Below are positions 25,703-56,294 of a DNA stretch of 64,000 bases, in pieces. How positions within the stretch are numbered: the stretch's first letter is position 1; every line of letters begins with the position of its first letter. The notes under the pieces are model-generated. The model worked only from the letters and a program-made list of their open reading frames with translations, did no database searches and was not told the origin of the DNA. This DNA is from Thermoplasmata archaeon. Its GTDB lineage: Archaea > Thermoplasmatota > Thermoplasmata > Lutacidiplasmatales > UBA184. The stretch is from positions 9,791-73,790 of the forward strand of contig DASPQC010000009.1 in NCBI GenBank assembly GCA_035625165.1, written 5' to 3'. Both the position numbers and the translations under genes were made by a program.

Positions 25703-26728
25703 ATGAAGCAGACCGAGACTGAGGGGACCGGGGAGACTGCCCCGGAAAGTTCCCCGGAACCCATCCCCCGCGCCCGCCGGCGCGACCGACCGACCGGACC
25801 GAATTCCCTGCCCGCCCTCCGTCCGGGCGGTGCTTCCCGACCGACCGAGACGGGACCCGCCATCGCGACCCTCGATATCGGCCGAGGAGAGCCGCCCGAG
25901 CATGTGTTCCGCCGGCTCCTCGGCGCCTACCTCGGCGGGGCCCGAGAGTTTGTGCTCCGCGAGCGGCCCCGCATCTCACCGACCACCCGCGAGGTCGTCC
26001 GAACGTTCTGCCGCCGTACTCGCCAACCCGAGATCCTCTCGGACGAGGGGGGCCTCCTGCGCCTTCGCGACCTGGCCTACGACAGTCCGGTTTCCCTTCC
26101 CCAACGGATCGAGCGGATGGGTCGCCTCGTCGTGGAGTTCCACCGTGAGTCGGTCGATGCGTGGGCCCGCCTGCCCCTCGGCGAGGACGGGTACTGGGAA
26201 CGCCGCGACGACGAGATCGACCGGGAGGCGTGGTACATCCAGCGACTTGCCGCCCTCCGCCTGGGGGCGGAGGGACCGAACACGACCCACCTCGGAACTT
26301 GGACGGTCGCGCGCAGCCTCGAACGGATCGCCGACCATGCGGTCACGCTGGGCGAGACCGGCCGCCGGCTGGTCGAGCTCCCGAATGGGGTCGGGCCGAT
26401 CACCCCGCTGAAGCAGTTCCATCGCCAGGCGATGGAGCACCTGGAAGGGGTGCTCGCGGTGACCGATGGGTCGGGCGCCAACGACCTTCTCGACATGGGG
26501 GAGGCGCTGATGGCCTCCGGACGGGCCCTCTCCGAACGGCTGCTGCCCGCGGTCAACGGCATCATGACCCCCCCGGCGACGGCCGCCGCCGTCGCTCGCA
26601 TCCTCGAGTCGATCCAGCGGACGATCGCGTACAGTCAGGACATTGCCCAGGTCGTCCTCGACCGGTCGCTCGCCTTCGTCGCCTCCGAGGAGGGAGAGGG
26701 CGCCCGCCCTCCGGTGCCGGCTATATAG
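25703..26728 (+). CDS. PhoU-domain protein (phosphate-uptake-regulator-like)
   Basis: Two PhoU-type helical repeats containing 'LERIADHAVTLGE' and 'IQRTIAYSQDIAQ', plus a disordered Pro/Glu/Thr-rich N-terminus. ATG 25703 lies 28 nt downstream of TATATATT. Confidence 0.75.
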   Translation: MKQTETEGTGETAPESSPEPIPRARRRDRPTGPNSLPALRPGGASRPTETGPAIATLDIGRGEPPEHVFRRLLGAYLGGAREFVLRERPRISPTTREVVRTFCRRTRQPEILSDEGGLLRLRDLAYDSPVSLPQRIERMGRLVVEFHRESVDAWARLPLGEDGYWERRDDEIDREAWYIQRLAALRLGAEGPNTTHLGTWTVARSLERIADHAVTLGETGRRLVELPNGVGPITPLKQFHRQAMEHLEGVLAVTDGSGANDLLDMGEALMASGRALSERLLPAVNGIMTPPATAAAVARILESIQRTIAYSQDIAQVVLDRSLAFVASEEGEGARPPVPAI

Positions 26729-26804: not shown

Positions 26805-27341
26805 ATGGCACGGCATAACGGCTCGACCAAGAGCGTTCGCGTGGTCGTCTTCCGTCACGGCCCCGCCGAAGACCGCGACCCGGTCCGCTGGCCGAACGAT
26901 GAGCGGCGGCCGCTTACGTCCAAGGGCCGCTCCCAGACCCGACGGGCGGCGAAGGGACTCGCCCGTGTGACCGACCCGGTCTCCCGGGTCGCCTCGAGTG
27001 CGGCCGACCGTGCTGTCTCGTCCGCCCAGATGGTCCGCGCCGCGCTGGACGACCCTCCGAAGCTCGAGACGTGGCCCGAGCTCGCTCCGGGGAACCTCCC
27101 GAGCCCGATCTTCGACCGCCTGAAGCGGTGTGTCCGCTCCGGCGAGGAGGTCCTCCTGGTCGGCCATGAACCGACCCTCGCCGAGTTCGTCGGCCTCGCC
27201 CTGACGGGCGACGGCGCCCCGGTCGTCCGTCTGACGAAAGGGGGCGCCGCTTGCCTCGAGTTCCCGGTCGGGGTGAGGCCGGGCGGAGGACGGCTCGTCT
27301 GGCTGCTCACGCGGAAGCAGCTCGCGGACGGGGCGTCGTAG
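26805..27341 (+). CDS. sixA: Phosphohistidine phosphatase SixA-like (histidine phosphatase superfamily)
   Basis: 'VVVFRHGPAEDR' (RHG motif), 'RPLTSKGRSQ' and 'LLVGHEPTL'. Start at ATG 26805. Confidence 0.7.
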   Translation: MARHNGSTKSVRVVVFRHGPAEDRDPVRWPNDERRPLTSKGRSQTRRAAKGLARVTDPVSRVASSAADRAVSSAQMVRAALDDPPKLETWPELAPGNLPSPIFDRLKRCVRSGEEVLLVGHEPTLAEFVGLALTGDGAPVVRLTKGGAACLEFPVGVRPGGGRLVWLLTRKQLADGAS

Positions 27342-28038
27342 GGCCCTTCGGCCGCGCCGCGTAGAGCGGCGCCACCAGCGACCGGACGTCCGTGTGGACC
27401 TGCTCGGGGGTCCGGTTCGCGTCCACGCGGTGGAAACGGTACTGGTCGGCCATCCAGTCGAACTCCTTCGAAAGGCGCTCCTGGTAGAGGAAGAAGCTCT
27501 CGAAGAGGTCCCGCGAGAGCGAGAGGTCCATCCCGCTCTCCCAGTAATCGAGCGACCCGTACTTCGAGATCGACCGATGGAGGAGGATCTCGGGCCGTGC
27601 CTCGAGGAAGACGATGACGTCCGGGCGGACCGCGAACGAGTAGAGCTCGCGGGCCCACTCGCGGGTCGCCCCGCGGACGATCGCGCGGGCCATCAGCGTG
27701 TAGATGTACCGGTCGGCGAGCACGGTGCTGCCCGCGGAGAGCGCCGGGATGATCTTGTTCTCGAGCTGGTCGGCGAAGTCGGCCGCGTAGAGGAGCGCCA
27801 TCGTGGTCGCCGCGAGCGTGTGGCCCTTCTTCGCCTGGTCGATCTCGGCGCTGACGAGGTCGGAGCGGCGGAGACCCGTGTCGACCACCGCGTGACCCTC
27901 GACCTCGAGCCACTCCTTGAGAAGGGTCACCTCCGTGGTCCGGCCCGAGCCGTCCGCCCCCTCGAGGACGACCAGCCGGCCGTGGAGGGGACCGGTGGGC
28001 ATCCCGGGAAGGCGGGTCCCGTACGTCCTACCCGTCAT
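27307..28038 (-). CDS. Thymidylate-kinase-like P-loop protein 2 (Walker A Lys replaced by Arg)
   Basis: 'LVVLEGADGSGRTTE' (GRT instead of GKS/T), DRY motif 'ADRYIYTLMA', and the insert 'LDYWESGMDLSLSRD' shared with its upstream paralog. The ATG overlaps the paralog's stop by 11 nt. Confidence 0.8.
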   Translation of the reverse strand: MTGRTYGTRLPGMPTGPLHGRLVVLEGADGSGRTTEVTLLKEWLEVEGHAVVDTGLRRSDLVSAEIDQAKKGHTLAATTMALLYAADFADQLENKIIPALSAGSTVLADRYIYTLMARAIVRGATREWARELYSFAVRPDVIVFLEARPEILLHRSISKYGSLDYWESGMDLSLSRDLFESFFLYQERLSKEFDWMADQYRFHRVDANRTPEQVHTDVRSLVAPLYAARPKGPTTPRPRAASA

Positions 28039-28726
28039 GCATCAGCCTCTCGACCGTCGGGAAACCGTCCAGGAGCGGGCGGACCGCCGCGCGGAGGTCG
28101 GCCTGAATCTGCTCGACCCGCCGGGTGGAGTCCACCACCGTGAAGCGGTCGCTCTGCGCGAGCTTCTCGTACTCGCGCTTGAGCCGGTTCTGGAACTTGA
28201 GGTAGCTCTCCTCGACATCGTCCGATAGGCCGAGGTCCATCCCGGCCTCGTAGTAGTTGATCTTGAGCCGGGAGGCGAGCTTCCGCCGCAGCGTGACCGA
28301 CACCGGGACGCGGAAGTAGAAGACCCGGTCCGGGCGGGGGGCGAAGGAGTAGATCGTCCGCACCCACGCAGGGTCGCAGCCGCGCGCGGCGTCCCGCACG
28401 AACGCCGTGTAGGCGTAGCGGTCGCAGACGACCAAGTAGCCCGCCCGCAGCGGAGGAAGCATCTTCCGCTCGAAGCGGTCGGCGAAGTCGGTGGCGTGGA
28501 GGAGGCTGAAGGTGGTCGGAGTCAGGAGGTTCTTCTTCTTGCCGCGCCGGATCACGCCCGAGACGAGCTCCGACGAGTTCCACTCGGTGAAGAAGACGCG
28601 GTAGCCCTGCGACTGGAGCCACTTCCCCAGCAGCGCGGCCTGGGTCGACTTCCCGCTCCCATCCAGTCCCTCGAAAACGAGGAGCCGGCCCGGATAGCCG
28701 TGGTTCGGGGAGGGCGTCTCAGGCAT
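28028..28726 (-). CDS. Thymidylate-kinase-like P-loop protein 1 (canonical Walker A)
   Basis: 'LLVFEGLDGSGKSTQ', DRY motif 'CDRYAYTAFV' and insert 'INYYEAGMDLGLSDD'. ATG 28726 overlaps the ppx stop by 8 nt. Only the C-terminal 232 aa of the 494-aa track ORF are credible. Confidence 0.85.
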   Translation of the reverse strand: MPETPSPNHGYPGRLLVFEGLDGSGKSTQAALLGKWLQSQGYRVFFTEWNSSELVSGVIRRGKKKNLLTPTTFSLLHATDFADRFERKMLPPLRAGYLVVCDRYAYTAFVRDAARGCDPAWVRTIYSFAPRPDRVFYFRVPVSVTLRRKLASRLKINYYEAGMDLGLSDDVEESYLKFQNRLKREYEKLAQSDRFTVVDSTRRVEQIQADLRAAVRPLLDGFPTVERLMHDG

Positions 28727-30275
28727 CACGGAACCGAACCTCGAGGTCGAACACCCGCTCCATCGGCCGTCGCGCCTTCTCGGGCCACCGGGGCGGTAGC
28801 GCCGTATCGGTCGGGGTAGAAAAGGTAACGCCCAGAGTGCGCGAGCCGTTCGGCAGGGAAAACCGGGGCCGGGCCGGCGCGAGGAGTTCCGCGACCTCGA
28901 GGAGGGCCCCCAGCTTGACCGCCGTGTCGAGCTCCTCCCCGCCGACGATGGGGAGAAAATCCCGCTTCCACTCGGAGGGGGGGTCGTCCCCCTCGTGGAG
29001 CCAGGCGGCCATCCCGGCGAGCAGGACCTCCCGCTGGTCGAGCCCCCAGATCGGGTAGCTTTGGATGAGATAGGAGGCGTGAGCGGGATGGTTCCACAGG
29101 TCGACCGACGACCCCGCATCGTGCATGCCGGCGGCGACCCGAAGCGCGAGCCGCTCGGATGGACCTCCGCCGAACCGCAAGGCGACGAGGTCATAGAGCG
29201 AGAGCGCGGCGTCGACCAGCCCACGCCCCGAGTCGACCTTGAGCGAGAACGATTCCCCGGCGGCGGCGACCGAGCGGTCGGCGAGGCTCTCGGCGGTCGC
29301 GGGGAGCTCGGCGCCGATCGCCTCGAGGGCGATCCCTTCCCGGATCCCCGTACCCGAAACGATGATTCGCTCCGCGCCGAACGCTCGGGTCGTCTCCTCC
29401 AGGACCGCGACCCCCGCGAGCACGACATCCGCCCGGTCGTTCCCGATACCGGGGACGGCTCGCCGCTTCGCCGCGGGCATCTCGGCGAGGAGCTCGTGGA
29501 GTGCCGAGACATCCCGCGCGTAGAGGGGGTAGCCGTGAACCCGCCGGATCGGCCAGTCCCTCAGCTCGATCGCGGCGCGCGCGAGCGAACGGACGGTTCC
29601 TCCGACGCCGACGAGGCGGTAGGAGTGCTTCCCGAACGCCTTCACGACCGAGGCCAGTGTGCCGCGGACGTGCTCGCGGAGCGTCTCCCACTCCCGCCGT
29701 TTCGGCGGGTCGTGGTCGAGGAAGCGCTTCGAGAGCCGAAGCACGCCCAGCGGAAGGCTGACGGAGTTCCGCAGACCCCCCGATCTCACCTCGGCGAGCT
29801 GCATCGAACCCCCGCCCAGGTCGAAGATGACCTCGTTCTCGAGGGGCCAGGCACTCGCGACCCCGAGGTACGCATACCGGGCCTCCTCCGTCCCCGGGAG
29901 AATCCGAAGGGTTACCCCGGTCGCCCGTTCCACCTCGTGCACGAACTCGGTCGCGTTCGTGGCGTCCCGGACGGCGCTGGTCGCGACCGCGAGCGTTCGC
30001 CCGAGACCGAGCGACCGGGCGACCTCGGAGAACCGTCGTACCGTGCCCACCCCGCGCGCGACCGCCTCCTCCGAGAGGCTGCCGTCCGGCAGGAGGCCGA
30101 GGCCGAGCCGCGGGGCGTCCTTCGTCTCGTAGATCGCGCGGACCGCCCGCGAGCGCGAGGCCTCGAAAGCTACGAAGCGCGCCGTGTTCGACCCGATGTC
30201 GATGACGCCGAGCGTGCTGGCCGGGCGACTGGGACGCGAGTCTCGAAGCGTCACCGTCACGCGGGCCCGGTTCAT
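28719..30275 (-). CDS. ppx: Exopolyphosphatase / guanosine pentaphosphate phosphohydrolase (Ppx/GppA family)
   Basis: ASKHA motifs 'LGVIDIGSNTARFVAFE' and 'VIFDLGGGSMQL', plus a C-terminal helical HD-like domain ('HDAGSSVDLWNHPAHASYLI'). Confidence 0.9.
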   Translation of the reverse strand: MNRARVTVTLRDSRPSRPASTLGVIDIGSNTARFVAFEASRSRAVRAIYETKDAPRLGLGLLPDGSLSEEAVARGVGTVRRFSEVARSLGLGRTLAVATSAVRDATNATEFVHEVERATGVTLRILPGTEEARYAYLGVASAWPLENEVIFDLGGGSMQLAEVRSGGLRNSVSLPLGVLRLSKRFLDHDPPKRREWETLREHVRGTLASVVKAFGKHSYRLVGVGGTVRSLARAAIELRDWPIRRVHGYPLYARDVSALHELLAEMPAAKRRAVPGIGNDRADVVLAGVAVLEETTRAFGAERIIVSGTGIREGIALEAIGAELPATAESLADRSVAAAGESFSLKVDSGRGLVDAALSLYDLVALRFGGGPSERLALRVAAGMHDAGSSVDLWNHPAHASYLIQSYPIWGLDQREVLLAGMAAWLHEGDDPPSEWKRDFLPIVGGEELDTAVKLGALLEVAELLAPARPRFSLPNGSRTLGVTFSTPTDTALPPRWPEKARRPMERVFDLEVRFRDA

Positions 30276-30295
30276 GCCCCGGGGAAGAAGCGTTC

Positions 30296-30302
30296 CATTA
30301 AG
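30296..30302 (-). promoter_or_regulatory. Candidate TATA box for the ppx-tmkL1-tmkL2 operon
   Basis: CATTAAG (minus strand CTTAATG) about 24 nt upstream of ATG 30275, within the 85-nt divergent spacer shared with the CHAD gene. Confidence 0.3.
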
Positions 30303-30360
30303 CCCCTTGGCACCGACCGGCCCGACCCTGGGTCGGCCCCGAATCCCTTTCTAGACGACC

Positions 30361-31290
30361 GTGTTCCGGCGAGCGGAGGAGGAGCATCTGCCCCCGTCCC
30401 CGCGCCCCGCGCGCCCTGTGCAGCTCTCGGCCGAGCTCCACCGTCGCCTCGACTCCGTCACGCATCGGGTCGACCACGCCATCACCGAGCCCCATCCATC
30501 GGTCGAGAGCCTCCACCAGCTCCATCGGGAGATGCGCCGCCTCCTGGTCGGGCTCAACATCTGGGCGCAACTCCTGCCTCAGCGAGAGCGGGACGCGTTG
30601 CGGCCGGTCGTGCGCCGCTGGAAGCGGTTGAGCCGACTGGTTGGTCAGGTCCGCGACCACGACGTGGTTCTCTCGCTCCTCGAGGAGGTGGAGTCGGCCC
30701 GGGTCCCCCCGGAAGACGCCCGCGGCTACCACGAGTTCCTAAGCCGCCTCCGCGATGACACGCGCACCGGTCGCGAGCTCCTCCGGGCGTTCCTGCGAAC
30801 CGAGCGGGAGGCCCGTCTGCTCGAGGAAGTGGGCGTCGCGATCGACTCGACGCCGCTGCACACGGCCGGTGTCCGTCTCCGGCGGCTCCTCGCGGTTGAG
30901 ACCGAGTACCGCTGGGGCCGGGTGCGGAAGGCCCACCGGAAGGCCCGTCGGCGGCCGACGGTCGACCGCTTGCACCGGCTGCGGATTCGCCTCCGGCAGC
31001 TTCGCCACACGGCCGACCTCGTCGGTATCGTCGACCCGCAGGCGGTCGCCTCCATCCCCGTCGCGTTCCGCCGACTCCAGGCGCACCTGGGTCGCCTCCA
31101 CGACCTGGACGTGGCGCTGCTCACCTTGGACCCCGAGCGAGCCGAGATGGCTTGGGGAGAAGCGCTCCGGGTCCGCCGCCGGCGTGAGCGACGGGCCGCC
31201 CGCCGGGCGCTCGCCTCCCTCGCGGTCGCGCCGGCCCGCCGCCGGCGGAAAGTGGCGCCGCGGGTCCGGAGGGCGACCGTACGTCGCTAG
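30361..31290 (+). CDS. CHAD-domain protein
   Basis: All-helical with His/Arg-rich repeats 'LHQLHREMRRL', 'LHRLRIRLRQLRHTADL' and 'LQAHLGRLHDLDV'. GTG start, with GTG 30418 as the alternative. Divergent from ppx. Confidence 0.75.
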   Translation: MFRRAEEEHLPPSPRPARPVQLSAELHRRLDSVTHRVDHAITEPHPSVESLHQLHREMRRLLVGLNIWAQLLPQRERDALRPVVRRWKRLSRLVGQVRDHDVVLSLLEEVESARVPPEDARGYHEFLSRLRDDTRTGRELLRAFLRTEREARLLEEVGVAIDSTPLHTAGVRLRRLLAVETEYRWGRVRKAHRKARRRPTVDRLHRLRIRLRQLRHTADLVGIVDPQAVASIPVAFRRLQAHLGRLHDLDVALLTLDPERAEMAWGEALRVRRRRERRAARRALASLAVAPARRRRKVAPRVRRATVRR

Positions 31291-31382: not shown

Positions 31383-32813
31383 GTGCGCCAGCTCGCGGCG
31401 CGCCTCTCGGACTCCACCTTCCGAGTCGTGACCACCCTCGATGAACTCGAAAAGGGAGGGGAGGTGCTCCGCATGGGCCGCGGCCTCTGGGTCCTCCGCG
31501 ACTTCGAGCAGCTTACCGGGCGGGACGACTTCGCCGGGCCGGCGGAGTTCGTTGAACGGTTCGAACGAGAGGAGGGGGTGGCGCTCGGCCGCTACGACGG
31601 TCCGATCACGTTTCGGTCGAACGAGGAGCTCCCCGTCCATCGATGGTGGCCGTACGTCCAGGGATTCTCGGCGGAGTTCGTTCGAGGAATCCTCGACCGG
31701 ACCCCGCACGGGAGGGGCTTCCGGGTCCTCGACCCGTTCGCCGGCAGCGGCACCACGCTCGTCGAGGCGCGACGCGCCGGGGGACGGGCCGTCGGGTCGG
31801 AGCTGCTCGCGCCGGCCGTCCTCGCGGCGCGCGTCAAGACGAACTTCGAGCTCGACCCGACCGAGCTCGCTTCGGCCGCCGAGCGTTTGCTCAGGTCCGC
31901 GGCCCGAGCGCGGGCGGGACCGCTCCCGTTCCTGCGTGAGACTCGTCGCCAGTTCCGCCCGGCGGCCCTGGCCGAACTCACCCGTCTGAAGGCGACCTTG
32001 CCGCCCGAGGACGGCGCGACCGCCGATGCGCTCCGTCTCGCCTTCGGGAGGATCCTGATCCCCTCGAGCCGGCTGCACCGTTCCCCTTGCCTCGGCTACG
32101 CGCGCTCGGCCCCCGGGGCGGGCCCCCTCCCGTTCGAGCGTTTCCGGGCGGCGGTGGCCGCGATGGCCGAGGACCTCGCCGCCCTCCGAACGGAACGGGT
32201 CCGATGGGGCCCGCCCGCCGACGTGCGCCGGGAGGATGCCCGCTCGGCCCGGTGGCCCGCGGGGAAGATCGACCTCGCGGTCACGAGCCCGCCGTACGTG
32301 AACGGCATGGACTACGTGATGAACTACAAGCTCGACCTCGCCTGGCTGGGGTACGCGCGGTCGTACGGAGACCTGGCGGCTCTCCGGCGCGCCGAGGTCG
32401 CCTGCGACAACCTCCCGCGGGCGGAGACGGCGCCGTTCCTCCACACGCAGGACCTGCCCGACCCGTGGCTTGAGGAGATCCTCCCGCGAATTCGCGACAA
32501 CGTCCACCGCAAAGGGAGCTACCGCCGCTCGGACGTCCACGCCGTCGTCCACCGTTACTTTGCGGATGTGGCGGAAGTGATGGCCGGCGTCCGTAGGGCG
32601 CTCCGACCGGGGGGACGGTTCGTCCTCGTGGTCGGCGACTCCCTGCTCGCGGGTGTCTACGTGCCCGGCGACCTCCTCCTCGCACGGATCGGCCGGTCGC
32701 TCGGCCTCAAGGTCGTCTCGGTGGAAGTCGCTCGCAAGCGTCGCAGCGGCCAGCGACGGAGTTTCGAGCTCCGCGAGTCGGTGGTCACCCTCGAGCGCCC
32801 GTCCGGCTCTTAG
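31383..32813 (+). CDS. DNA (N4-cytosine/N6-adenine) methyltransferase with N-terminal wHTH-like region
   Basis: SAM motif I 'VLDPFAGSGTTLVEA', catalytic motif IV 'DLAVTSPPYVNGMDY' about 180 aa later, and 'ALRPGGRFVLVVGD'. N-terminal 'VRQLAARLSDSTFRVVTTLDELEKGGEVLRMGRGLWVL'. Confidence 0.75.
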   Translation: MRQLAARLSDSTFRVVTTLDELEKGGEVLRMGRGLWVLRDFEQLTGRDDFAGPAEFVERFEREEGVALGRYDGPITFRSNEELPVHRWWPYVQGFSAEFVRGILDRTPHGRGFRVLDPFAGSGTTLVEARRAGGRAVGSELLAPAVLAARVKTNFELDPTELASAAERLLRSAARARAGPLPFLRETRRQFRPAALAELTRLKATLPPEDGATADALRLAFGRILIPSSRLHRSPCLGYARSAPGAGPLPFERFRAAVAAMAEDLAALRTERVRWGPPADVRREDARSARWPAGKIDLAVTSPPYVNGMDYVMNYKLDLAWLGYARSYGDLAALRRAEVACDNLPRAETAPFLHTQDLPDPWLEEILPRIRDNVHRKGSYRRSDVHAVVHRYFADVAEVMAGVRRALRPGGRFVLVVGDSLLAGVYVPGDLLLARIGRSLGLKVVSVEVARKRRSGQRRSFELRESVVTLERPSGS

Positions 32814-32874: not shown

Positions 32875-33162
32875 ATGTTCTGTCCGGTCTGCGGGCGGAC
32901 GCTCCAGGGTCCGGCTTCTCCGACGGTGCCGTTCCCCATCTACGTCTGTCCGCACGACGGAGTCGTTCACGACCAGCGCCGGGAGCTCTGGCACGGGCTT
33001 CCGAACGAGATCGCGAAGCTCCACTGCCCGATCTGCGGGGGCCGCATGGAGTTCGAGCCGAAGGAGCCGCCCCATCGCATCTTCTTCTGCTACCAGTGCG
33101 GGACGACGTACGACCGCGAGCGAGGCGCTTGGTTCGGTCTGACCTACTACCGCCCGCCGTGA
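32875..33162 (+). CDS. Small double zinc-ribbon protein
   Basis: 95 aa with 'CPVCG...CPHDG' and 'CPICGG...CYQCG'. Confidence 0.5.
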   Translation: MFCPVCGRTLQGPASPTVPFPIYVCPHDGVVHDQRRELWHGLPNEIAKLHCPICGGRMEFEPKEPPHRIFFCYQCGTTYDRERGAWFGLTYYRPP

Positions 33163-44865: not shown

Positions 44866-46262
44866 TGCCCTCGGGCCCGGACGGCTTCGTTTCCGACCCA
44901 CGGTACACCGAAGAGTTCGGCCGCGCTCGCTCCCTTCTGCTGGGCCAGCCCGGTCGCTGGCGGGTCATCTATCACTACGACGGGGACGGGGTGTCGGCCG
45001 CCTCGTCCGCTCTCCGCGCCTTCGGCCGGTTGGGCTACCCGGCCCAGGCGACTCCGCTGATGGGGGTCGAGCGCGAGCGGATGGAGGAGCTCCTCGCGAG
45101 CACTCCCGGCCCGGTGCTCGTGACCGACACGGGGGCGACGTGGCTCGACCTGTTCGCCCGTCACCCGCACCCGGTGGTGGTGCTCGACCACCACCGCTAC
45201 GCCGGGGTCCCCCATCCCCCAGACCTTCCGCCCCACGTCGCGTTCGTCAACCCGCTCGACTGGGGGGTCGACGGGATGACCGAGATGTGCGCCGGCACGC
45301 TCACCTGGCTCTTCACCGTCTTCCTCGACCCCGTCAACTGGGACAACGCCCCGTGGGGCCTCTCGGGGGCGATTGCGGACCGGCAGCATGTGGGAGGTTT
45401 CCGTGGCTTGAACGGTCGGCTGGTCGAGGAGGCGGTCCGCCGATCGATCATCCAGCGACGGCCGGGCCTCGCGCTCTACGGCCCCTCGCTCTCCGAGGCC
45501 CTCACGCGGAGCACGGACCCGTTCTTCCGCGGCCTCTCCGGCCGTCCCCCCGCCGCCGCCGAATTCCTCCGCGGCCTCAACCTCGACCCTCGACGCCCAC
45601 CCGCCGACCTGACGGCCGGCGAGGCGAACGGCCTGGGCGAGGCGTTGAAGCACCATCTCGAGGCCGCCCATGTCCTCCCGGAGTTCGTGGCGCTGGTCGA
45701 CCAGGAGCGGTTCTTCGTCCCGTCGCTGGGGCTGGACGCCGAGGAGGTCTCGAACCTCCAGAACGCCAGCGGTCGGGCCGGGATCCCCGGGGTGGGGGTC
45801 GCCTTCGCCTTGGGGGACCGCAGCGCCGAAGCCCGCAGCCGGGCCGCGGAGCAGGAGTGGAGGGAGGGAATCCTGCGGGGGCTCTTGCGAGTGGAGGATG
45901 AAGGCGTTAATTCGATGCGGTTCCTTCGTTGGTTCGAGAGCCCCGAGACGACCCTCGCGGGCACCCAGGCCGGACTCGCGATGAACTTCCTCCTCCCCCC
46001 CGACCTCCCCGTGTTCGTCTTCTCCGAACGACCCCCCGAGCAGTCGAAAGTGAGCGGCCGCGGGACGAACCGCCTGGTCACCCGCGGGCTCAACCTGGCC
46101 GCGGTCTGCCGCGACGCCGCCGCCGAGGTGGGTGGCGAAGGCGGGGGTCACCCGGTGGCAGCCGGTGCCTCGATCCCCGCCGGGAGCCGGGACCGCTTCC
46201 TCGAGGCCGCGGACCGCATCCTGAGCACCCAGCTCGCCGTTCCGGGAGGGGCTGCGCGATGA
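44865..46262 (+). CDS. RecJ-like DHH/DHHA1 phosphoesterase (GAN/Cdc45-RecJ family)
   Basis: 'HYDGDGVSA', 'LVTDTG', 'VVLDHHR' and DHHA1 'GGGHPVAAG'. The ATG shares 1 nt with the rps15 stop (TGATG). Confidence 0.8.
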
Positions 46263-48913
46263 CCGACGCCCCGCCCGCGACGCCGGCCCCGCCGGTCGAC
46301 AAGGTGCGGGACCACCCGCTCGAGGTGGAGATGCACCGCTCGTACATCGATTACGCCATGAGCGTCATCGTCGGGCGGGCGCTCCCCTTCGGCCGGGACG
46401 GGCTCAAACCGGCCCAGCGACGGATCCTCTGGTCGATGTGGGAGTCCGGAGCGACCCACGACCACGCCTACCGCAAGAGCGCGCGGACGGTGGGCGACGT
46501 CCTCGGGAAGTACCACCCGCACGGCGACATGGCGGTCTACGACACGCTCGTTCGGATGGCGCAGCCGTTCAGCCTCCGCTACCCCTTGATCGACGGTCAG
46601 GGGAACTTCGGGTCGATCGACGGAGACGCGCCGGCGGCGATGCGCTACACGGAGGCCCGCCTCTCCCCGATTGCCGAGGAGATGCTTCTCGACATCGAGA
46701 AGGAGACGGTCGACTGGTCGGACAACTTCGACGGGACGCTCAAGGAGCCGCTCCTGCTCCCCTCCAAGGTCCCCAATCTCCTCGTGAACGGCTCCGCGGG
46801 GATCGCCGTCGGCATGGCGACCAACATGCCCCCCCACAACCTGGGGGAGGTGGTCGACGCGCTCCTGCTGCTCCTCGCCCGGCCCGAGGCGGCCTTGGAT
46901 GAGATCATGAAGGTCCTCCCCGGCCCGGACTTCCCGACGGGAGGCTATCTCTCGCAGGAGGGGATCCGCGAAGCGTACGAGACCGGGCGCGGGATGGTCC
47001 ACCTCCGCGGCACCGCCGAGATCCGCGAGCGCGGAGAGCGGGACGAGATCGTCATCACCGAGGTCCCGTACGAGGTCAACAAGGCCCAGCTGCTCGAGCT
47101 GATCGCCGACCTCGTGAAGGCGAAGCGGATCGACGGCATCACCGACCTCCGGGACGAGTCGGACCGTTCGGGGACGAGCGTCGTCCTCGAGCTGCGCCGG
47201 GACGCGCCGAGCGAGATCGTCCTCAACCGGCTCTACGAGCACACGCCGCTCGAGACGAGTTTCGGCGTGATCAACCTCTGCCTCGTGGGCGGACGCCCCC
47301 GCGTCCTCCCGCTCAAGGAGCTCTTGGAGCTCCACCTGACGCACCGGCGGGAGACGCTGACCCGCCGGACGAAGTTCGACCTCAAGAAGGCGGAGGAGCG
47401 GCTCCACATCCTCGAGGGATTCCTCACCGCCATCGACCACATCGACGAGGTCATCCGCATCATCCGGCGCTCGCGGGACGCCCAGGTCGCCGAGACGAGC
47501 CTCATGGGGAAATTCCTGCTCTCCTCCGAGCAGGCGAAGGCGATCCTCGACATGCGCCTCGCGCGCCTGACGGCGCTCGAGCGCGAGTCGGTCGAGAAGG
47601 AGAAGGCGGAGAAGGAGGCGCTCGTCCGCCACCTCAAGGAGGTCCTCGGCTCGCCGAAGCTTCTGGACCGCCTCATCGTGGACGAGCTCACCGACCTCAA
47701 GACGCGGTTCGGCGACCCCCGGAGGACCCGCATCGTCCCGGCGTTCACGGAACGGACCCTCGCGGACCTGATACCGGACATGGACGTGGTCGTCCTCGTC
47801 ACCCGCGACGGCTACGTGAAGCGCCTCCCCCTCGACCAGTACCGCCGTCAACGCCGTGGTGGCCGCGGCCTCGTCCAGATGGAGACGAAGGAGGAGGACA
47901 TCGTCATCCGCACCTTCGTGACGCGGACGCACGACGACGTCCTGTTCTTCACCACGCTGGGCCGGGTCTACCGCCTGAAGGCCTACGAGCTCCCCGAGGG
48001 GAGCCGCCACTCGAAGGGGAAGGCGATCATCAACCTCCTCCCGCGGCTCAAGGACGGCGAGCACGTCCGCACGCTCCTCCCGCTCCACGACCTCGCCGGG
48101 GAGGGAGCGCTCCTGTTCGCGACCCGGCGCGGCATCGTGAAACGGACGACCCTGGACCAGTTCCAGAACATCCGCACGAGCGGGATCCAGGCCGTCCTCC
48201 TCGACGAGGGGGACGAGCTGGTGGACGTGATGCTCGTCACCGGTGACTCGACCGAGATCCTGCTCTCCACCCACGCGGGCCAGCTGGTCCGTTTCGCCCT
48301 CGGCGAGGTCCGTCCGATGGGCCGCGCGACCTACGGGGTGATCGGGGTCCGGCTCTCCAAGTCGAAGGACGACCGCGTGGTCGCGATGGCGGTCGTGAGC
48401 CCGCGGTACCCGAACCTCCTCTCGCTCACGACCACCGGCTTCGGGAAACGGACGCCGATCGCCGACTACCGCGAGACCAAGCGGGGCGCGAAAGGGGTCC
48501 GCACGATCAAGACCGGAGGGCGGAACGGAACGGTGGTCGCCGTCCTGCCGACGACGGACGCGTCCGAGCTCCTCGTCACCACCCAGCGGGGGATCACCAT
48601 CCGCATGGCGGTCAAGGGCATCCGCACGCAGTCGAGGAACACCCTCGGCGTCCGCGTCATCCGGCTGGACGAGGGGGACGAGGTCCGGGACGCCATCACG
48701 ATCGAGCCCTCGATCGAGGGGAACGGGGGCGAAGCGGCCGAGGCGCCTCCCGAGGCCGAGGGGAAGAAGGTCACCCGCGAGCCCGAGCGAACGCCGGCGC
48801 CGGACGAGGAGGAGCCCCCCGCGGAGCCGGAGGACGAATCGGACGACAGCCCTCCGTCCGAGCCGGACGACGAGGACAAGGAGGACGACCGTGCGTCGTC
48901 ATCGAAGGGGTAA
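46259..48913 (+). CDS. gyrA: DNA gyrase subunit A
   Basis: '[15 protein letters not shown]', '[11 protein letters not shown]', active-site Tyr in '[10 protein letters not shown]', '[15 protein letters not shown]', a beta-pinwheel CTD and an acidic tail. ATGA overlap with the recJ-like stop. Confidence 0.95.
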
Positions 48914-51602: not shown

Positions 51603-52185
51603 GCGGACGCCCCGGCCGGGGCCGCGAGACGGAAGGCTCATCTCGGATCGCAAAGCGGAGCGGGCGCTCGACCGCCTGACGGATTCCGACCCGCGGGCCG
51701 ACCACGACCGCCCGCGGCCGGCGTCCCCGCGCGAGCACCATCACCCGGCGGTCTCGGGTCGCATCTCGCCCGTCGTCCGAGAGGGTGAGGCCGAGGTGGC
51801 GGCAGAGGCGCCCCGGGCCGCTCGTTCTCCCATCGGCCCCGAGGTTCGGGGTTCCGGCTCGGAGGAGGACGGCTTCGCCGCAGCGGGTGACGAGGTTCGC
51901 GCAAACGACCTGATGGATCTGGAAGACGTAGAGGGTCCCCGGTCGGCCGAACATCGAGCGGTTGCGCCGGGTCGGACCCCGGAACGCGTGGCTCGCCGGA
52001 TCTCCGCGGACGTACGCCTCCGTCTCGGAGAGGAGCACCGACCGTTCCTCCGCGCCGTCCCGCACGACCAGCGTCGTGCCGAGCAGCGCCCGCGCGACGC
52101 GGACCGTCGGACGGTCGAAGAACGACCGACCGAGCCGACGTCGCGGCTCAGAGGATCTTCCCTCGGTCGACCAGCGGTCGGCCAT
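51487..52185 (-). CDS. mpg: DNA-3-methyladenine glycosylase (AAG/Mpg family)
   Basis: 'FFDRPTVRVARALLG' and 'ETEAYVRGDPASHAFRGPTRRNRSMFGRPGTLYVFQIHQ'. The last ~44 aa form an Arg/Ser/Gly-rich tail that is antisense to rpl37e. Confidence 0.8.
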   Translation of the reverse strand: MADRWSTEGRSSEPRRRLGRSFFDRPTVRVARALLGTTLVVRDGAEERSVLLSETEAYVRGDPASHAFRGPTRRNRSMFGRPGTLYVFQIHQVVCANLVTRCGEAVLLRAGTPNLGADGRTSGPGRLCRHLGLTLSDDGRDATRDRRVMVLARGRRPRAVVVGPRVGIRQAVERPLRFAIRDEPSVSRPRPGRPPTSASPSRSRGGGSSRRTRRRRRPSSAGGTSGGRTGGR

Positions 52186-53257
52186 CGACCGCGACCGTCG
52201 CCTCCCCGACCGTGATCCAGGAAAGGAAGCGGCACCGGTTCCGCCCCCCGTAGTGGGTGTTTCCTCCGATCGCGACCGTGACGGTTCCGGCCGGCTGGTC
52301 CTCGGCCTGGGGGACCGACCGGTCGAGCGCGTCGTTCAGACCGAGCGCGACCAGCCCCACCGTCTCCCGGCCGCGCGGGGCGGCGGCGAACTCCTCGTCG
52401 AACGCCTCCCCCCCGTCGGTGTACCAGTAGTTGCGAAGGCGGCCCCCCTCGAGCTCCCATTGGGCCCCTTCGACCCGGCCCGGCCGAAGGAAGCTCGGTC
52501 GGTTGGAGACGGCCACCCCGGTCGCCGAATGCTCGTCGACGGCGACCACGACCGACCCGGCGGGAGCGGTCGCCACGACCTGGCCCCGGCGGCGGTCCTC
52601 GGCGTCGACCTGGCCGTCGTCCACCCACGGGGTCCGCCCCCGCAGACGAAAACGGACGTCCGTGCCGTTCCCGGCCTGCAGGTGCAGCTCGCGGCCCCGG
52701 GCCAGCAGGCGGGCCGCCTTCGCCCCGTTCGCCTTGAGCTCGCCGTAGTCCACCTGGGTGATACCGCGGACGAGCTGGCTCCGCCAGAGCGCCCCCGGGA
52801 CCGCCCAGTGTTCGGCCTGCGCATCCGAAGCGTACCCGAGGAGGCAGCGGACCGCTCGCAGGCCGGTCGCCCGCGCCCGGCGGAGCCACTCGTCTTCCGC
52901 GCCCAGGAACGGGGACTGGAGCTGGGGCGGGAGCGCGTGCAGGCGGGGCCGGTCGGCTGGTCCGGGAAAGTAGAGGAAGGCATCGGCGTGCCGTAACGCG
53001 GAGCGAGCGGGCGACGAGAGTCGGGCCCAGCTCCGCGGAGAGACGGCGGTGTCGAGACTGTGCCAGAAGGCGCCCTCGTCCTCGAGGAGGAGGAGCGGAC
53101 GGGCGCCGATGCGGCGGGATTCGGCGACCAGGGCGCTCGCCCACGGGAGCGTGTGGTTCCAGGTCGAGACGACCAGATGTTCCCCCCGACGCAGGGAGAG
53201 CGCGCTCCCGACCAGGGCGCGAGCGACGGCCGTCGGGGTCCCCCCGTCCGCGGGCAC
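52148..53257 (-). CDS. M29 (AmpS/aminopeptidase T)-like protein
   Basis: The overall layout and blocks 'HLVVSTWNHTLPWASALV' and 'GTVTVAIGGN' resemble thermophilic aminopeptidases. Several expected metal-ligand positions look substituted by eye. Confidence 0.5.
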   Translation of the reverse strand: MPADGGTPTAVARALVGSALSLRRGEHLVVSTWNHTLPWASALVAESRRIGARPLLLLEDEGAFWHSLDTAVSPRSWARLSSPARSALRHADAFLYFPGPADRPRLHALPPQLQSPFLGAEDEWLRRARATGLRAVRCLLGYASDAQAEHWAVPGALWRSQLVRGITQVDYGELKANGAKAARLLARGRELHLQAGNGTDVRFRLRGRTPWVDDGQVDAEDRRRGQVVATAPAGSVVVAVDEHSATGVAVSNRPSFLRPGRVEGAQWELEGGRLRNYWYTDGGEAFDEEFAAAPRGRETVGLVALGLNDALDRSVPQAEDQPAGTVTVAIGGNTHYGGRNRCRFLSWITVGEATVAVDGRPLVDRGKIL

Positions 53258-53344: not shown

Positions 53345-54055
53345 ATGCAGCGGCCGGTGCCGGAGGAGCTGGGGACGTTCTCGATCGTCGCGTCGGACGT
53401 CGAGCGGGGTTTCTGGGGGGTGGCCGTCTCCACCCACCCGATCTCGGTCGGGGCGACCGTCCCCTGGGCGGAATGGAGGGTGGGGGCGATCGCGACCCAG
53501 GCCCTCTCCAATTACGGATACGGCCCGGAGGGACTCTCCCTCCTCCGCCGCGGGCTCTCGGCTCCCGAGGTCGTCCGCCGGCTGACCGACGCGGACCGGA
53601 AGCGAGAGCACCGGCAGCTCGCGGTCGTCGACCGACGCGGAAGGGTGGCGGCGTGGACGGGGAAGAAATGCCTCGACTCCGCGCTCCACATCACGGGGGA
53701 GGGTTTCTCCTGCCAGGGGAACCTTCTCGCGAGCGACGACGTGGTGAAGGCGATGGCCCGAAACTTCGAGGCGAGCCGCGGTTCGCTCGACCTCCGCCTG
53801 TTCGGCGCGGTCGAGGCGGGCCTCCGGGCGGGTGGGGACCGGCGCGGAGTCCAGTCCGCGGCGCTCGTGGTCGTACACCGCGAGCCGTGGTTCGACCGTG
53901 CCTCAAGCGACCGGTGGACGGACCTTCGGGTTGACCAGCACCCACGACCGGTCGCCGAGCTCGGGAGGATCCTCCGGATCGACCACGAGCTCACGCGAAA
54001 GTTCCTGAGAGCCCGGACAGCCCGGCTACGGCGTCGGCGCCGAGCGAGAGGCTGA
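53345..54055 (+). CDS. DUF1028-family (Ntn-hydrolase-like) protein
   Basis: 'GTFSIVASDVERGFWGVAVSTHPISVGATVPWAEWRVGAIATQALSN' is typical of DUF1028. Start at ATG 53345. Confidence 0.6.
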   Translation: MQRPVPEELGTFSIVASDVERGFWGVAVSTHPISVGATVPWAEWRVGAIATQALSNYGYGPEGLSLLRRGLSAPEVVRRLTDADRKREHRQLAVVDRRGRVAAWTGKKCLDSALHITGEGFSCQGNLLASDDVVKAMARNFEASRGSLDLRLFGAVEAGLRAGGDRRGVQSAALVVVHREPWFDRASSDRWTDLRVDQHPRPVAELGRILRIDHELTRKFLRARTARLRRRRRARG

Positions 54056-55336
54056 GCGACGGACTCCGGCCGCCCCGGTGAGGACGGCGTGGGAGCGGAG
54101 GGACCGCACGATCTTCTGGGACGAGGCCCCGGACCGAGCCAGCCGACGGGCCGTGCGGACGATCAGTCGTCCGGCGTCGTCGAATGGAGGGGCGAACGCC
54201 GGTCGGACGAATGGCGAGGGAAAGTTCCTCCACGCACCCTTTCGAACCGCGGCACGCCGGACCACCTCTCGAACCCGGCGGGCACGGGAGAAATCCCTGA
54301 GGTCCCGCAGCAGCTCCTCGGAGACCCCGTTCGCCCGGCCCGCGCGGACGAGGGCGAGGAGCTTCTCGGGTCGATGGCGACGCGCTGCCCCGCCGCGGCC
54401 GAGGACCCCGTTGAAGTAGAGGAACGGCCCCCGCACCTCGAGCGCCTCGAGCAGCGTGCGGCTCCCGGTCACGACCCGGACGGAGGCTTCCCGGAACCGG
54501 AGGCTCCACGCGGGGGACGGTTGGGGACCCTGGGTCAGCTCGACCCACTCCTCGTCCGGTCGGTACCGCCAAGGACGCGGGGAGCGGATCGTGAGGTGCA
54601 CTTTCCGGCCCGACTCCTTGAGCCCGCGGACGACTGCAGGAGCGATCCGCTCCGCGCTCGCGGGGCTCGCGTACCAGACCCACGATTCCTGTTCCCGAGA
54701 GGTGCCGCGCGGACTGGGTCGGAACCGCCTGGACCAGAGCGGCCCCGTCTGGACCGCTTCGGGCATCTCGCGGGCGAACGAGGAGTCCGGCGCGAACGTC
54801 GCAAAGAGGTGGAGCACGTTCGGACGGTCGAACGCGCGAAACTCCCGGAACGCGGCTCGGAATCGCTCGACGTCCCCGGCGGCGCGCGACTGCTTCCCGC
54901 GGCGGGAAAGCGCCCGGGCCCGGACCCCGCCCTCCCTCAGGCGTTCAAGGTTCTCCCGGCGGACGGTGAGCGTACGGGCGAACTCCTCGAGGCTCAGATG
55001 GAGCGTGCGGTCGGAGCCGTACGTCCGCTCGATATCGCTGGCCTCGTGGGCCCAGGGGCCCTCCCGCCCTAGTGGCCCGGGACGGCCGGGCGCAGCGTTG
55101 AGGCCGAACGCCGGGGAGACGGTGAGCGCCGCCGCGGCCCGAGGGTGAAGCGCGTGGGTCCGCCGGAGCGCCGGCCACGCCCACGGTCCGTCCACCCCTC
55201 GCGGGAGCGGCCGCCCCGGGCGGCGGTAGAGCTCGACCCGAAAGCCGGCCCGACGAAGTGCGCGACCAGCGGCGAGCACCTCCTCGATGTCCCCGAGCCC
55301 GCCTCCGACCACGGCCGGGAAGAGGTAGACGTCCAC
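54026..55336 (-). CDS. Hypothetical 436-aa protein (possibly GT-B-like fold)
   Basis: N-terminal 'VDVYLFPAVVGGGLGDIEEVLAAGRALRRAGFRVELY' resembles a Gly-rich glycosyltransferase N-terminus. No family recognised. GTG 55336 was chosen to avoid overlapping the upstream GNAT. Confidence 0.5.
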   Translation of the reverse strand: MDVYLFPAVVGGGLGDIEEVLAAGRALRRAGFRVELYRRPGRPLPRGVDGPWAWPALRRTHALHPRAAAALTVSPAFGLNAAPGRPGPLGREGPWAHEASDIERTYGSDRTLHLSLEEFARTLTVRRENLERLREGGVRARALSRRGKQSRAAGDVERFRAAFREFRAFDRPNVLHLFATFAPDSSFAREMPEAVQTGPLWSRRFRPSPRGTSREQESWVWYASPASAERIAPAVVRGLKESGRKVHLTIRSPRPWRYRPDEEWVELTQGPQPSPAWSLRFREASVRVVTGSRTLLEALEVRGPFLYFNGVLGRGGAARRHRPEKLLALVRAGRANGVSEELLRDLRDFSRARRVREVVRRAAVRKGAWRNFPSPFVRPAFAPPFDDAGRLIVRTARRLARSGASSQKIVRSLRSHAVLTGAAGVRRSASRSAPTP

Positions 55337-55358
55337 GCCGCCCCGTGGCGGCGGCCGT

Positions 55359-56294
55359 TCACCCGACGGGCCGGTAGAGCGTCGAGACCGAGATGGCATG
55401 GTGGAACCCGGCCGCCTCGAGGGCGGCCCGCGCCTGGGGTGGTTCGTTCGCGGCCACGCTGACGAGCCGGGGCGCCTTCCGTCCGGCACACCAGGCGGCC
55501 GCGGTCCGCGTGAGCGCGGCGCCGAGGTCGGGGGGCACGGTATCGGAGAGGAGCGGCTCCGAGAGGTGGCCGGCCTCGGTCGCCGCGGTGATCGCCCCCG
55601 AGACGTACCCCTCCGCCCCGTGGCCCCGGTCGATGACCCACGCGGCGACCTCCGTCGCCATCGCGTGGTTCAAGCGGGGGGACGGGCGGAACGAGCTTGG
55701 CGACGCCGGCAGAACCTCCTGGACGGCGGCTGGAACGGTTCGCTGCGAGACCCCGAGGAGGACCCCCGCGTCGGCCGCGGCGAACGGGCGGACCTGCGGT
55801 GGAGGAACGAACGGGAGGAGCGAGACGGGCCGGTCGTGGACATAGAGGCCCGTTCCGCGGAGGCGACGGTATCCGGCGGAGTCGTAGAGATGCACGGCCC
55901 GGGAGTTCGAGTCGAGCACGTCCAGCACCACGTAGGGCCGCCCTCGCCGGGCGGTGATCGCGCGGGCCTCCTCGAGGAGGCGCCGCGCGAGGCCGCGCCC
56001 TCGGTAGGCCGGGTCGACCACGACCATCGCGAGGTAGCCGGCGCGCGGCGTGAACGAGACCATCGTGGTCCCGACGATCTGGCCGTCCGCTTCGAAGACC
56101 AGGAAGCGGAACGGCGACCGACCCAGCAGACGCGCGAGCGCGAGGAGGAGGCGGGTGTCCCAGCGGAAGGCACGGGAGACGATCCTCTCGAACCCTTCCG
56201 GACGGGTGCCGAGGAGCGCCTCTTCCTCAGGGAACTCCCGGGTGAGGAACGTGAACACCCGTTCGGTGTCGCCCCGACGGAGGTCGCGGAGCAT
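55359..56294 (-). CDS. Two-domain GNAT-family acetyltransferase
   Basis: First domain 'YLAMVVVDPAYRGRGLARRLLEEA' (acetyl-CoA motif), followed by a second GNAT-like half. The ATG shares 1 nt with the HEAT-protein stop. Confidence 0.7.
   Translation of the reverse strand: MLRDLRRGDTERVFTFLTREFPEEEALLGTRPEGFERIVSRAFRWDTRLLLALARLLGRSPFRFLVFEADGQIVGTTMVSFTPRAGYLAMVVVDPAYRGRGLARRLLEEARAITARRGRPYVVLDVLDSNSRAVHLYDSAGYRRLRGTGLYVHDRPVSLLPFVPPPQVRPFAAADAGVLLGVSQRTVPAAVQEVLPASPSSFRPSPRLNHAMATEVAAWVIDRGHGAEGYVSGAITAATEAGHLSEPLLSDTVPPDLGAALTRTAAAWCAGRKAPRLVSVAANEPPQARAALEAAGFHHAISVSTLYRPVG

Follow-up and report, generated by a model that had tools for sequence, protein, structure and literature searches.

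A 64-kb stretch of the genome of a Thermoplasmata archaeon (hereafter the window; 71% GC) very probably carries a polyphosphate (polyP) operon of the recently described PPK3 type, in which an exopolyphosphatase gene, ppx, is followed by two paralogous genes for proteins with the fold of thymidylate kinase (Tmk), here called TmkL1 and TmkL2. The synthesis of polyP in archaea without the polyP kinases PPK1 and PPK2 was a long-standing gap in the field, closed by PPK3 in 2024-2026. A preliminary description of the window, referring to this work in Sulfolobus, proposed that the operon is the same kind of module. The work is published (Höfmann et al., JBC 2026, PMC12995831; preprint 10.1101/2024.08.28.610084), and the orthology of TmkL1, the clade of TmkL2, the gene order and the conserved pairing of the two genes all bear the proposal out. 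The assignment makes ppx-TmkL1-TmkL2 a member of the published family in a lineage that is absent from the publication's text: Thermoplasmata do not occur in the main texts of the paper and preprint, and in the literature searched we found no paper linking PPK3 to any name beginning with Thermoplasmat. The locus would extend PPK3 to an uncultured, apparently soil-derived Thermoplasmata lineage.

In Sulfolobus acidocaldarius, the catalytic subunit Saci_2019 (cPPK3) and the regulatory subunit Saci_2020 (rPPK3) form a reversible alpha2beta2 polyP kinase, SaPPK3, which prefers the direction polyP + ADP -> ATP and is encoded in an operon of the order SixA-PPX-cPPK3-rPPK3-CHAD (PMC12995831). The subunits have the thymidine monophosphate (dTMP) kinase fold and conserved ATP-site residues, while the residues of the dTMP site, including the EP motif, are not conserved; a basic cleft is conserved in the c- but not the r-subunit, and the lack of the DRX arginine was offered as the explanation for the inactivity of the r-subunit (PMC12995831). 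The locus in the window resembles this system in having two adjacent Tmk-fold paralogs directly downstream of ppx, c then r, with overlapping gene boundaries, and in having SixA and CHAD genes in the cluster; ppx itself occupies the operon position of Saci_2018. It differs in that the CHAD gene is divergent and the SixA gene convergent (both are co-directional in S. acidocaldarius), in the presence of an extra PhoU-domain gene, and in its host, a mesophile-like, GC-rich member of the Thermoplasmata rather than a thermoacidophilic crenarchaeon.

Sequence and predicted fold identify TmkL1 as a clear ortholog of cPPK3. The best phmmer match in the Protein Data Bank (PDB), for TmkL1 as for TmkL2, is STK_15430 (also ST1543; 2plr, 4nzy, 4rzx, 5h70), the cPPK3 homolog of Sulfurisphaera tokodaii, a protein of 213 amino acids (aa) that was described, in its PDB entry and in print, as a dTMP kinase and lacks the extensions that the window proteins have at the N- and C-termini. 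Against this protein (2plr/5h70) TmkL1 reaches 212 bits (E 5.5e-62), compared with 66 bits for the best canonical Tmk in the same search. Its identity is 50% to Saci_2019 (218 bits) and 32% to the Tmk of T. thermophilus. An AlphaFold2 model of TmkL1 (predicted local distance difference test score, pLDDT, 90.5; predicted template modeling score, pTM, 0.87) agrees. Its top eight Foldseek matches are all ST1543 chains, with template modeling (TM) scores of 0.91-0.94, root mean square deviations (rmsd) of 1.5-2.1 Å and E ~1e-21; the fit to 5h70 reaches an rmsd of 1.5 Å and a TM score of 0.94, and canonical Tmks appear only at E ~1e-12.

The motifs FEGLDGSGKST and CDRYAY that had been noted in TmkL1 are present, and its Walker A motif (GLDGSGKST), DRY motif (CDRYAY) and LID arginine R148 are intact and invariant across the c-types. 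It also has the c-type invariants GxDGSGK, TEWNSS, KK..LTP, HA.DF..R and DRY.YTA..RD..RG, together with R153, E-A-G-x-D, Q179 and R212. Its residues in Walker A, DRY, TEWNSS, the basic cleft and E-A-G-x-D are those of Saci_2019. The basic cleft was judged at the sequence level, from conserved Lys and Arg columns and the isoelectric point (pI). Twelve basic columns are conserved only in c-types, and TmkL1 keeps all twelve whereas TmkL2 has lost most; the pI values (9.60 for TmkL1, 6.61 for TmkL2) are close to the family medians of 9.28 for c and 6.48 for r.

In an alignment with T. thermophilus Tmk, the dTMP-site motifs of TmkL1 are replaced: REP by EWN, the stacking Phe by His, and ADR by TDF. 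TmkL2 has TGLRRS in place of REP, at the position where c-types have TEWNSS; the arginine of ADR has given way to DF in both TmkL proteins, and the stacking Phe of Tmk is His or Tyr in the pair. Neither the two proteins nor any of their 240 close orthologs retain these dTMP-binding residues (REP, stacking Phe, ADR Arg), in agreement with what the paper states for PPK3. With canonical Tmks (T. thermophilus 5x7j, Aquifex aeolicus 2pbr) the pair has in common the fold, the P-loop GxDGxGK[ST]T, the DRY motif and the LID Arg. It is set apart from them by an identity of just 28-32%, by the replaced REP, F and ADR residues, by an extra post-LID segment (4 + 9 residues) and, in the c-subunit, by a strongly basic cleft. 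The preliminary description had seen in the two proteins a shared helical insert. The shared segment, E-[AS]-G-M-D, is indeed there, but it belongs to a family-wide post-LID extension that is also present in Sulfolobales cPPK3; in the AlphaFold2 model residues 152-170 of this extension are mostly coil, and a long helix (171-192) follows.

TmkL2, to judge from its clade and motifs, is an ortholog of rPPK3. It scores 138 bits against STK_15430 and 52 bits against canonical Tmk, and the best fold match of its AlphaFold2 model (pLDDT 85.5) is again ST1543 (TM 0.85-0.88). The motifs LEGADGSGRTT and ADRYIY reported earlier are both found. With Saci_2020 it shares the motif ADQxEN, where c-types have ADR[FY]E[RK], as well as the loss of the basic-cleft residues and the lower pI; the two r-subunits are just 29% identical. 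In pairwise comparison TmkL2 scores 179 bits against TmkL1, 143 against Saci_2019 and 100 against Saci_2020. Saci_2020 for its part finds its best match in TmkL2 (100 bits), ahead of its own partner (78 bits). A neighbor-joining tree of 172 c and r sequences (Kimura distances, home-made implementation, 200 bootstraps) splits off all 85 r-types, including TmkL2 and five Sulfolobales-type r-subunits, in 89% of bootstraps and all c-types in 86.5%; the Thermoplasmata r clade has 100% and the Thermoplasmata c clade 97.5% support. Because the tree has a single canonical Tmk as outgroup, the c/r split is read as unrooted evidence only. Set beside canonical Tmk, PPK2 and the Sulfolobus pair by phylogeny and profiles, TmkL1 thus falls in the c split and TmkL2 in the r split, and neither protein matches the PPK2 profile PF03976 at E <= 0.01. 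We also considered that TmkL2 might be an independent, recent duplicate of TmkL1, as its higher score against the c-type Saci_2019 than against Saci_2020 could indicate. This was rejected because Saci_2020 scores best against TmkL2, because four other Sulfolobales-type r-subunits have the same Lys-to-Arg change in Walker A (see below), and because of the 89% support for the r split.

The two genes travel together. When one genome for each GTDB species was scanned with c-specific patterns, at least 593 stretches were confirmed, and the locus counts given here refer to the best 80. The ppx-tmkL-tmkL synteny to which the preliminary description had attached weight is conserved across relatives: the r gene directly follows the c gene in 79 of the best 80 loci, usually with ppx and SixA, and the exception ends at a contig edge. 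The 23 loci from Thermoplasmata metagenome-assembled genomes (MAGs; 69-91% identity) all have PPX, with SixA in 20, CHAD in 19 and PhoU in 14, and their usual arrangement is CHAD← / ppx→c→r→ / ←SixA ←PhoU. The other 57 loci, at 51-60% identity, have PPX in 42 cases, SixA in 34, CHAD in 14 and PhoU in 7. They include, among archaea, Nitrososphaerota and a Methanocella MAG and, among bacteria, Acidobacteriota, Chloroflexota (including the cultured Dictyobacter alpinus), Deltaproteobacteria, Planctomycetota, Nitrospirota, Bacillota, Bacteroidota, Verrucomicrobiota, Gemmatimonadota, Chlorobiaceae, Omnitrophica and others. Both the number of c-pattern stretches and the many bacterial phyla among the best 80 loci go far beyond the published range of Sulfolobaceae, Nitrososphaeraceae and "a few bacteria" (PMC12995831). 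Relative to the publication's text, the host from the Thermoplasmata, the far wider occurrence in bacteria and the linkage to PhoU are new.

The pairwise distance matrices of c and r correlate (r = 0.91-0.94), which argues that the pair moves as a unit. A physical c-r complex is indirectly supported by the strict co-occurrence, by this co-variation of distances and by natural fusions. One such fusion, P0362, is a single chain of 460 aa that joins c and r; ppx follows it with a 4-nucleotide (nt) overlap, a NUDIX gene lies divergently upstream, and it occurs in two independent assemblies (L090 5001-6383, NCBI GCA_026626995.1; L091 5001-6383, Logan SRR22299285). Its r-domain has a degenerate P-loop, GSDYSGHYQ, and keeps DRY. 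Across the family, the Thermoplasmata proteins are 54% (c) and 47% (r) identical to the bacterial and Nitrososphaerota ones, as compared with 45% (c) and 32% (r) to those of Sulfolobales. Public metagenomes hold thousands of close homologs of both subunits, all named dTMP kinase, and 204 representatives (50% clustering) match TmkL2 at E <= 1e-30; all named close homologs of both are Thermoplasmata archaeon MAG proteins.

Several observations pull against the PPK3 assignment. Of all the family members sampled, SaPPK3 lies farthest away, with 45-48% (c) and 28-38% (r) identity to the Thermoplasmata proteins. The replacement of the DRX arginine, which the paper gives as an r-subunit trait, is not seen in TmkL2, which keeps D109-R110-Y111 along with the LID Arg, and the description "inactive regulatory subunit" appears less certain for TmkL2 than for Saci_2020 because these site residues are conserved. 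Finally, both proteins pass Pfam PF02223 (97.9 bits for TmkL1, 75.8 for TmkL2) and the NCBIfam equivalog TIGR00041 (107.2 and 88.9 bits; cutoff 83.25). This last point would fit a housekeeping dTMP kinase, the pair or one member of it, that merely adjoins ppx, as would the name "dTMP kinase" on all database entries and the first publication of STK_15430 as a thymidylate kinase. The lack of a further Tmk among the 26 open reading frames (ORFs) of the window that were scanned against Pfam points the same way; PPK1 and PPK2 are also missing from these ORFs. We nevertheless consider a housekeeping role highly improbable. The dTMP-binding residues are gone from both proteins, both score far higher against the structure of the cPPK3 homolog than against any canonical Tmk, and across phyla c is strictly followed by r, in the company of ppx, SixA and CHAD. 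Moreover, Saci_2019 and Saci_2020 formed no dTDP, the true S. acidocaldarius dTMP kinase being Saci_0893 (PMC12995831), and the earlier thymidylate kinase work on ST1543 measured ADP formation only. The lost dTMP site, the PPK3 clades and the negative published assays of the orthologs thus uphold the original argument that this is unlikely to be a plain housekeeping dTMP kinase. TIGR00041 and PF02223 do not separate PPK3 subunits from Tmk and, with both subunits passing a curated dTMP-kinase equivalog, PPK3 is systematically misannotated. It will escape any survey of phosphorus cycling in which ppk1 and ppk2 are the only genes counted.

Within the PPK3 assignment, the r-subunit calls for closer discussion. 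TmkL2 differs from Saci_2020 both in its DRX Arg, where Saci_2020 has Gly, and in Walker A, where TmkL2 has Arg in place of Lys (GADGSGRTT) with the P-loop geometry otherwise intact, while Saci_2020 has an atypical P-loop Lys. All 120 close TmkL2 orthologs have the Lys-to-Arg replacement, and so do the r-subunits of all non-Sulfolobus loci for which the P-loop was read. It is also found in four of the five Sulfolobales-type r-subunits (L086 4626-5243, L087 4624-5256, L088 4627-5262 and L089 4624-5271), which come from S. tokodaii, M. sedula and two uncultured Sulfolobales-type loci and whose P-loops read G.EGSGR[ST]; the exception is Saci_2020 (L001 5621-6253), with GIMSSGKTT. DGY in place of DRY, on the other hand, occurs in all five Sulfolobales-type r-subunits and only there, the r-subunits of every non-Sulfolobus locus having DRY or DRF. 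Loss of the DRX Arg looks like a trait of Sulfolobales that does not define the family, and the family-wide hallmark of r-subunits would be the Walker-A Lys-to-Arg change, a point that is likewise new relative to the publication's text.

Could the r-subunit have a working site of its own? A version of the PPK3 enzyme that we consider possible, if rather unlikely, has TmkL2, and with it the r-subunit in most of the family, as a functional partner with a working phosphate site that binds nucleotide or polyP, or even catalyzes. The site would consist of the Walker-A Arg, DRY, the LID Arg, the r-specific Arg58 and E-S-G-x-D, and Saci_2020, which also lacks D29, R118, E167 and G169, would be a degenerate outlier, and the inactivity ascribed to r-subunits a generalization from it. 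Indeed, the r-type site columns are as conserved in the 80-locus alignment as the c-type catalytic columns. The near-invariant r-type positions are R58, Y84, D87, D90, E93, R118, R122, R155 and E167/G169/D171, and column conservation is 99% for R33, D29, R58 and R118 and 100/99% for D109/R110; the Lys-to-Arg change is near-universal in r, and the DRX Arg is lost only in the Sulfolobales type. However, Walker-A Lys-to-Arg changes usually cripple phosphoryl transfer in P-loop kinases, r-types are without the basic cleft, and the conservation may stem from structural or interface constraints alone. The degenerate r P-loop of the P0362 fusion, moreover, shows that the r-site is dispensable in at least one lineage. 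With a Walker-A Arg and DRY as the common r state, the "inactive" verdict from Saci_2020 would seem to need re-testing on a typical member. If the r-site does function, the PPK3 of soil Thermoplasmata, ammonia-oxidizing archaea and many bacterial phyla would be regulated beyond the published model, for example by sensing ATP/ADP or by holding the polyP end, and its kinetics would differ from those of SaPPK3.

Returning to the PPK3 assignment as a whole, gene anatomy, orthology, motifs and synteny are read from the window and its relatives; for activity, heteromer formation and the direction of flux we infer from the Sulfolobus enzyme. The ppx, cPPK3 and rPPK3 genes would probably be expressed as one translationally coupled message from the TATA-like box upstream of ppx. 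TmkL1 would be the catalytic P-loop kinase, with ATP or ADP at the Tmk nucleotide site and the polyP chain held by the conserved basic cleft in place of the dTMP pocket, and would carry out the reaction ATP + polyP(n) <-> ADP + polyP(n+1). By analogy with SaPPK3, it would make ATP from polyP at low ATP/ADP and build polyP at high ATP/ADP. TmkL2 would be the paralogous partner that oligomerizes with TmkL1 and activates it, perhaps in an alpha2beta2 complex as in Sulfolobus. PPX, CHAD, SixA-like and PhoU-like proteins would serve to hydrolyze and bind polyP and, probably, to exert control in response to phosphate.

The direction of flux admits a further alternative, namely that the enzyme acts physiologically only as a polyP-consuming kinase of ADP (or of another nucleoside di- or monophosphate), with net polyP synthesis left to another enzyme. 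The ~50-fold higher specific activity of SaPPK3 in the polyP->ATP direction and its formation of polyP only with an ATP-recycling system (PMC12995831) are in keeping with such a role, as is the presence of a degradative PPX in the operon. We regard it as unlikely, however, considering that the reaction runs both ways, with equilibrium at an ATP/ADP of ~3-4, under typical cellular ratios, that PPK1 and PPK2 are absent from most genomes encoding PPK3 (PMC12995831), and that no alternative synthase is seen in the window. The paper itself draws an analogy with two-domain class II PPK2 (P. aeruginosa PA3455), which combines an active P-loop module with an inactive, oligomerizing paralog and shows the same preference for polyP-dependent nucleotide phosphorylation. 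PPK2 is nonetheless a different family; the modules lie on separate polypeptides here, and the ADP and polyP sites of PPK3 are swapped relative to PPK2 (PMC12995831).

Table 1. Features of the polyP operon and its neighbors, in window coordinates.
Feature	Position	Strand	Basis
ppx, exopolyphosphatase (Ppx/GppA family, 518 aa), first gene of the operon	28719..30275	-	Pfam PF02541
TmkL1, predicted catalytic subunit cPPK3 (232 aa, pI 9.6)	28028..28726	-	homology, fold, clade
TmkL2, predicted regulatory subunit rPPK3 (243 aa, pI 6.6)	27307..28038	-	clade, synteny, motifs
Overlap of ppx stop and cPPK3 start, 8 nt, ATGCCTGA	28719..28726	-	read directly
Overlap of cPPK3 stop and rPPK3 start, 11 nt, ATGACGGGTAG	28028..28038	-	read directly
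AT-rich TATA-like box CTTAATGG, ~24 nt upstream of the ppx ATG	30295..30302	-	read directly
CHAD-domain protein (290 aa as called), divergent from ppx	30418..31290	+	Pfam PF05235, 85 bits
SixA-like histidine phosphatase (178 aa, RHG motif), convergent	26805..27341	+	PF00300; called gene
PhoU-domain protein (341 aa), upstream of SixA on the SixA strand	25703..26728	+	PF01895, 37 bits; called gene

The coordinates of the three minus-strand genes and the lengths of both overlaps, as first described, were confirmed by direct reading (Table 1). The ppx stop codon TGA (28721-28719) and the TmkL1 ATG (28726-28724) lie within ATGCCTGA, and the TmkL1 stop codon TAG (28030-28028) and the TmkL2 ATG (28038-28036) within ATGACGGGTAG; in Sulfolobales-type loci the called genes overlap by 1-4 nt (ppx/c) and 16-28 nt (c/r). 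The TmkL1 start is backed by relatives of 232-233 aa that align over 100% of its length, and the TmkL2 start, with its N-terminal extension, by r-type proteins of other phyla that align from TmkL2 residue 4-6. The ppx product matches Ppx-GppA (PF02541) with 193.7 bits, plus domain III, and scores 276.9 bits against NCBIfam TIGR03706 (exo_poly_only), under the cutoff of 307.

An AT-rich box lies at about the same distance from ppx in most of the 18 Thermoplasmata loci compared, and CTTAATGG is probably the promoter of a leaderless ppx-c-r transcript. A second AT-rich TATA-like box, TTTCTAGA (30347-30354, plus strand), faces the CHAD gene in a ppx-CHAD spacer that is otherwise GC-rich, and boxes like CTTAATGG and TTTCTAGA both recur in most of these 18 loci. 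An Rfam scan of the window found two tRNAs only, with no riboswitch or leader near the operon.

The linkage to CHAD, SixA-like and PhoU-like genes that had been proposed holds at the level of family matches (CHAD with 85 bits, His_Phos_1/SixA, and PhoU). The CHAD gene had been placed 85 nt upstream of ppx in divergent orientation. The orientation stands, but the start is ambiguous, and the spacer is 85 nt only with a GTG start at 30361, the called start at 30418 giving 142 nt. The SixA-like protein scores 69 bits against NCBIfam TIGR00249 (sixA; cutoff 74.5), and the convergent 3' ends of its gene (plus strand) and of rPPK3 (minus strand) overlap by 35 nt (27307-27341). The depiction of the host genome as GC-rich, gyrase-encoding and euryarchaeon-like also proved apt, given the GC content of 71%, a GyrA gene at 45929-48913 and closest relatives named Thermoplasmata archaeon.

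Other fusions occur as well. P0364, P0384 and P0391 are proteins of 650-696 aa with two Tmk-like domains and a Ppx-GppA domain III/HD module. The P0364 gene (L092/L093 5001-7091) has two CotH-family genes and one MgtC/DUF4956 gene as neighbors, which may constitute another polyP-related gene cluster. In the more distant relatives P0492, P0496, P0438 and P0441, which score ~136-153 bits against TmkL2, one Tmk-like domain is joined to an inorganic pyrophosphatase (InPase) domain or to SPX plus DUF2252/APH-like domains.

Beside the CHAD gene, an ORF at 31383-32813 (plus strand, 446 aa as called) gives a faint match to N6_N4 DNA methyltransferase, and a 95-aa ORF at 32875-33162 (plus strand) a faint match to a Cas12f1-like TNB (zinc-ribbon) domain; the two may be the remnant of a mobile element. 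Two minus-strand ORFs, 51741-53144 (467 aa) and 54026-55489 (487 aa), have no Pfam match at E <= 1e-4 and may be either spurious in a sequence of 71% GC or novel proteins. A HEAT-repeat protein of 494 aa is encoded at 56294-57778.

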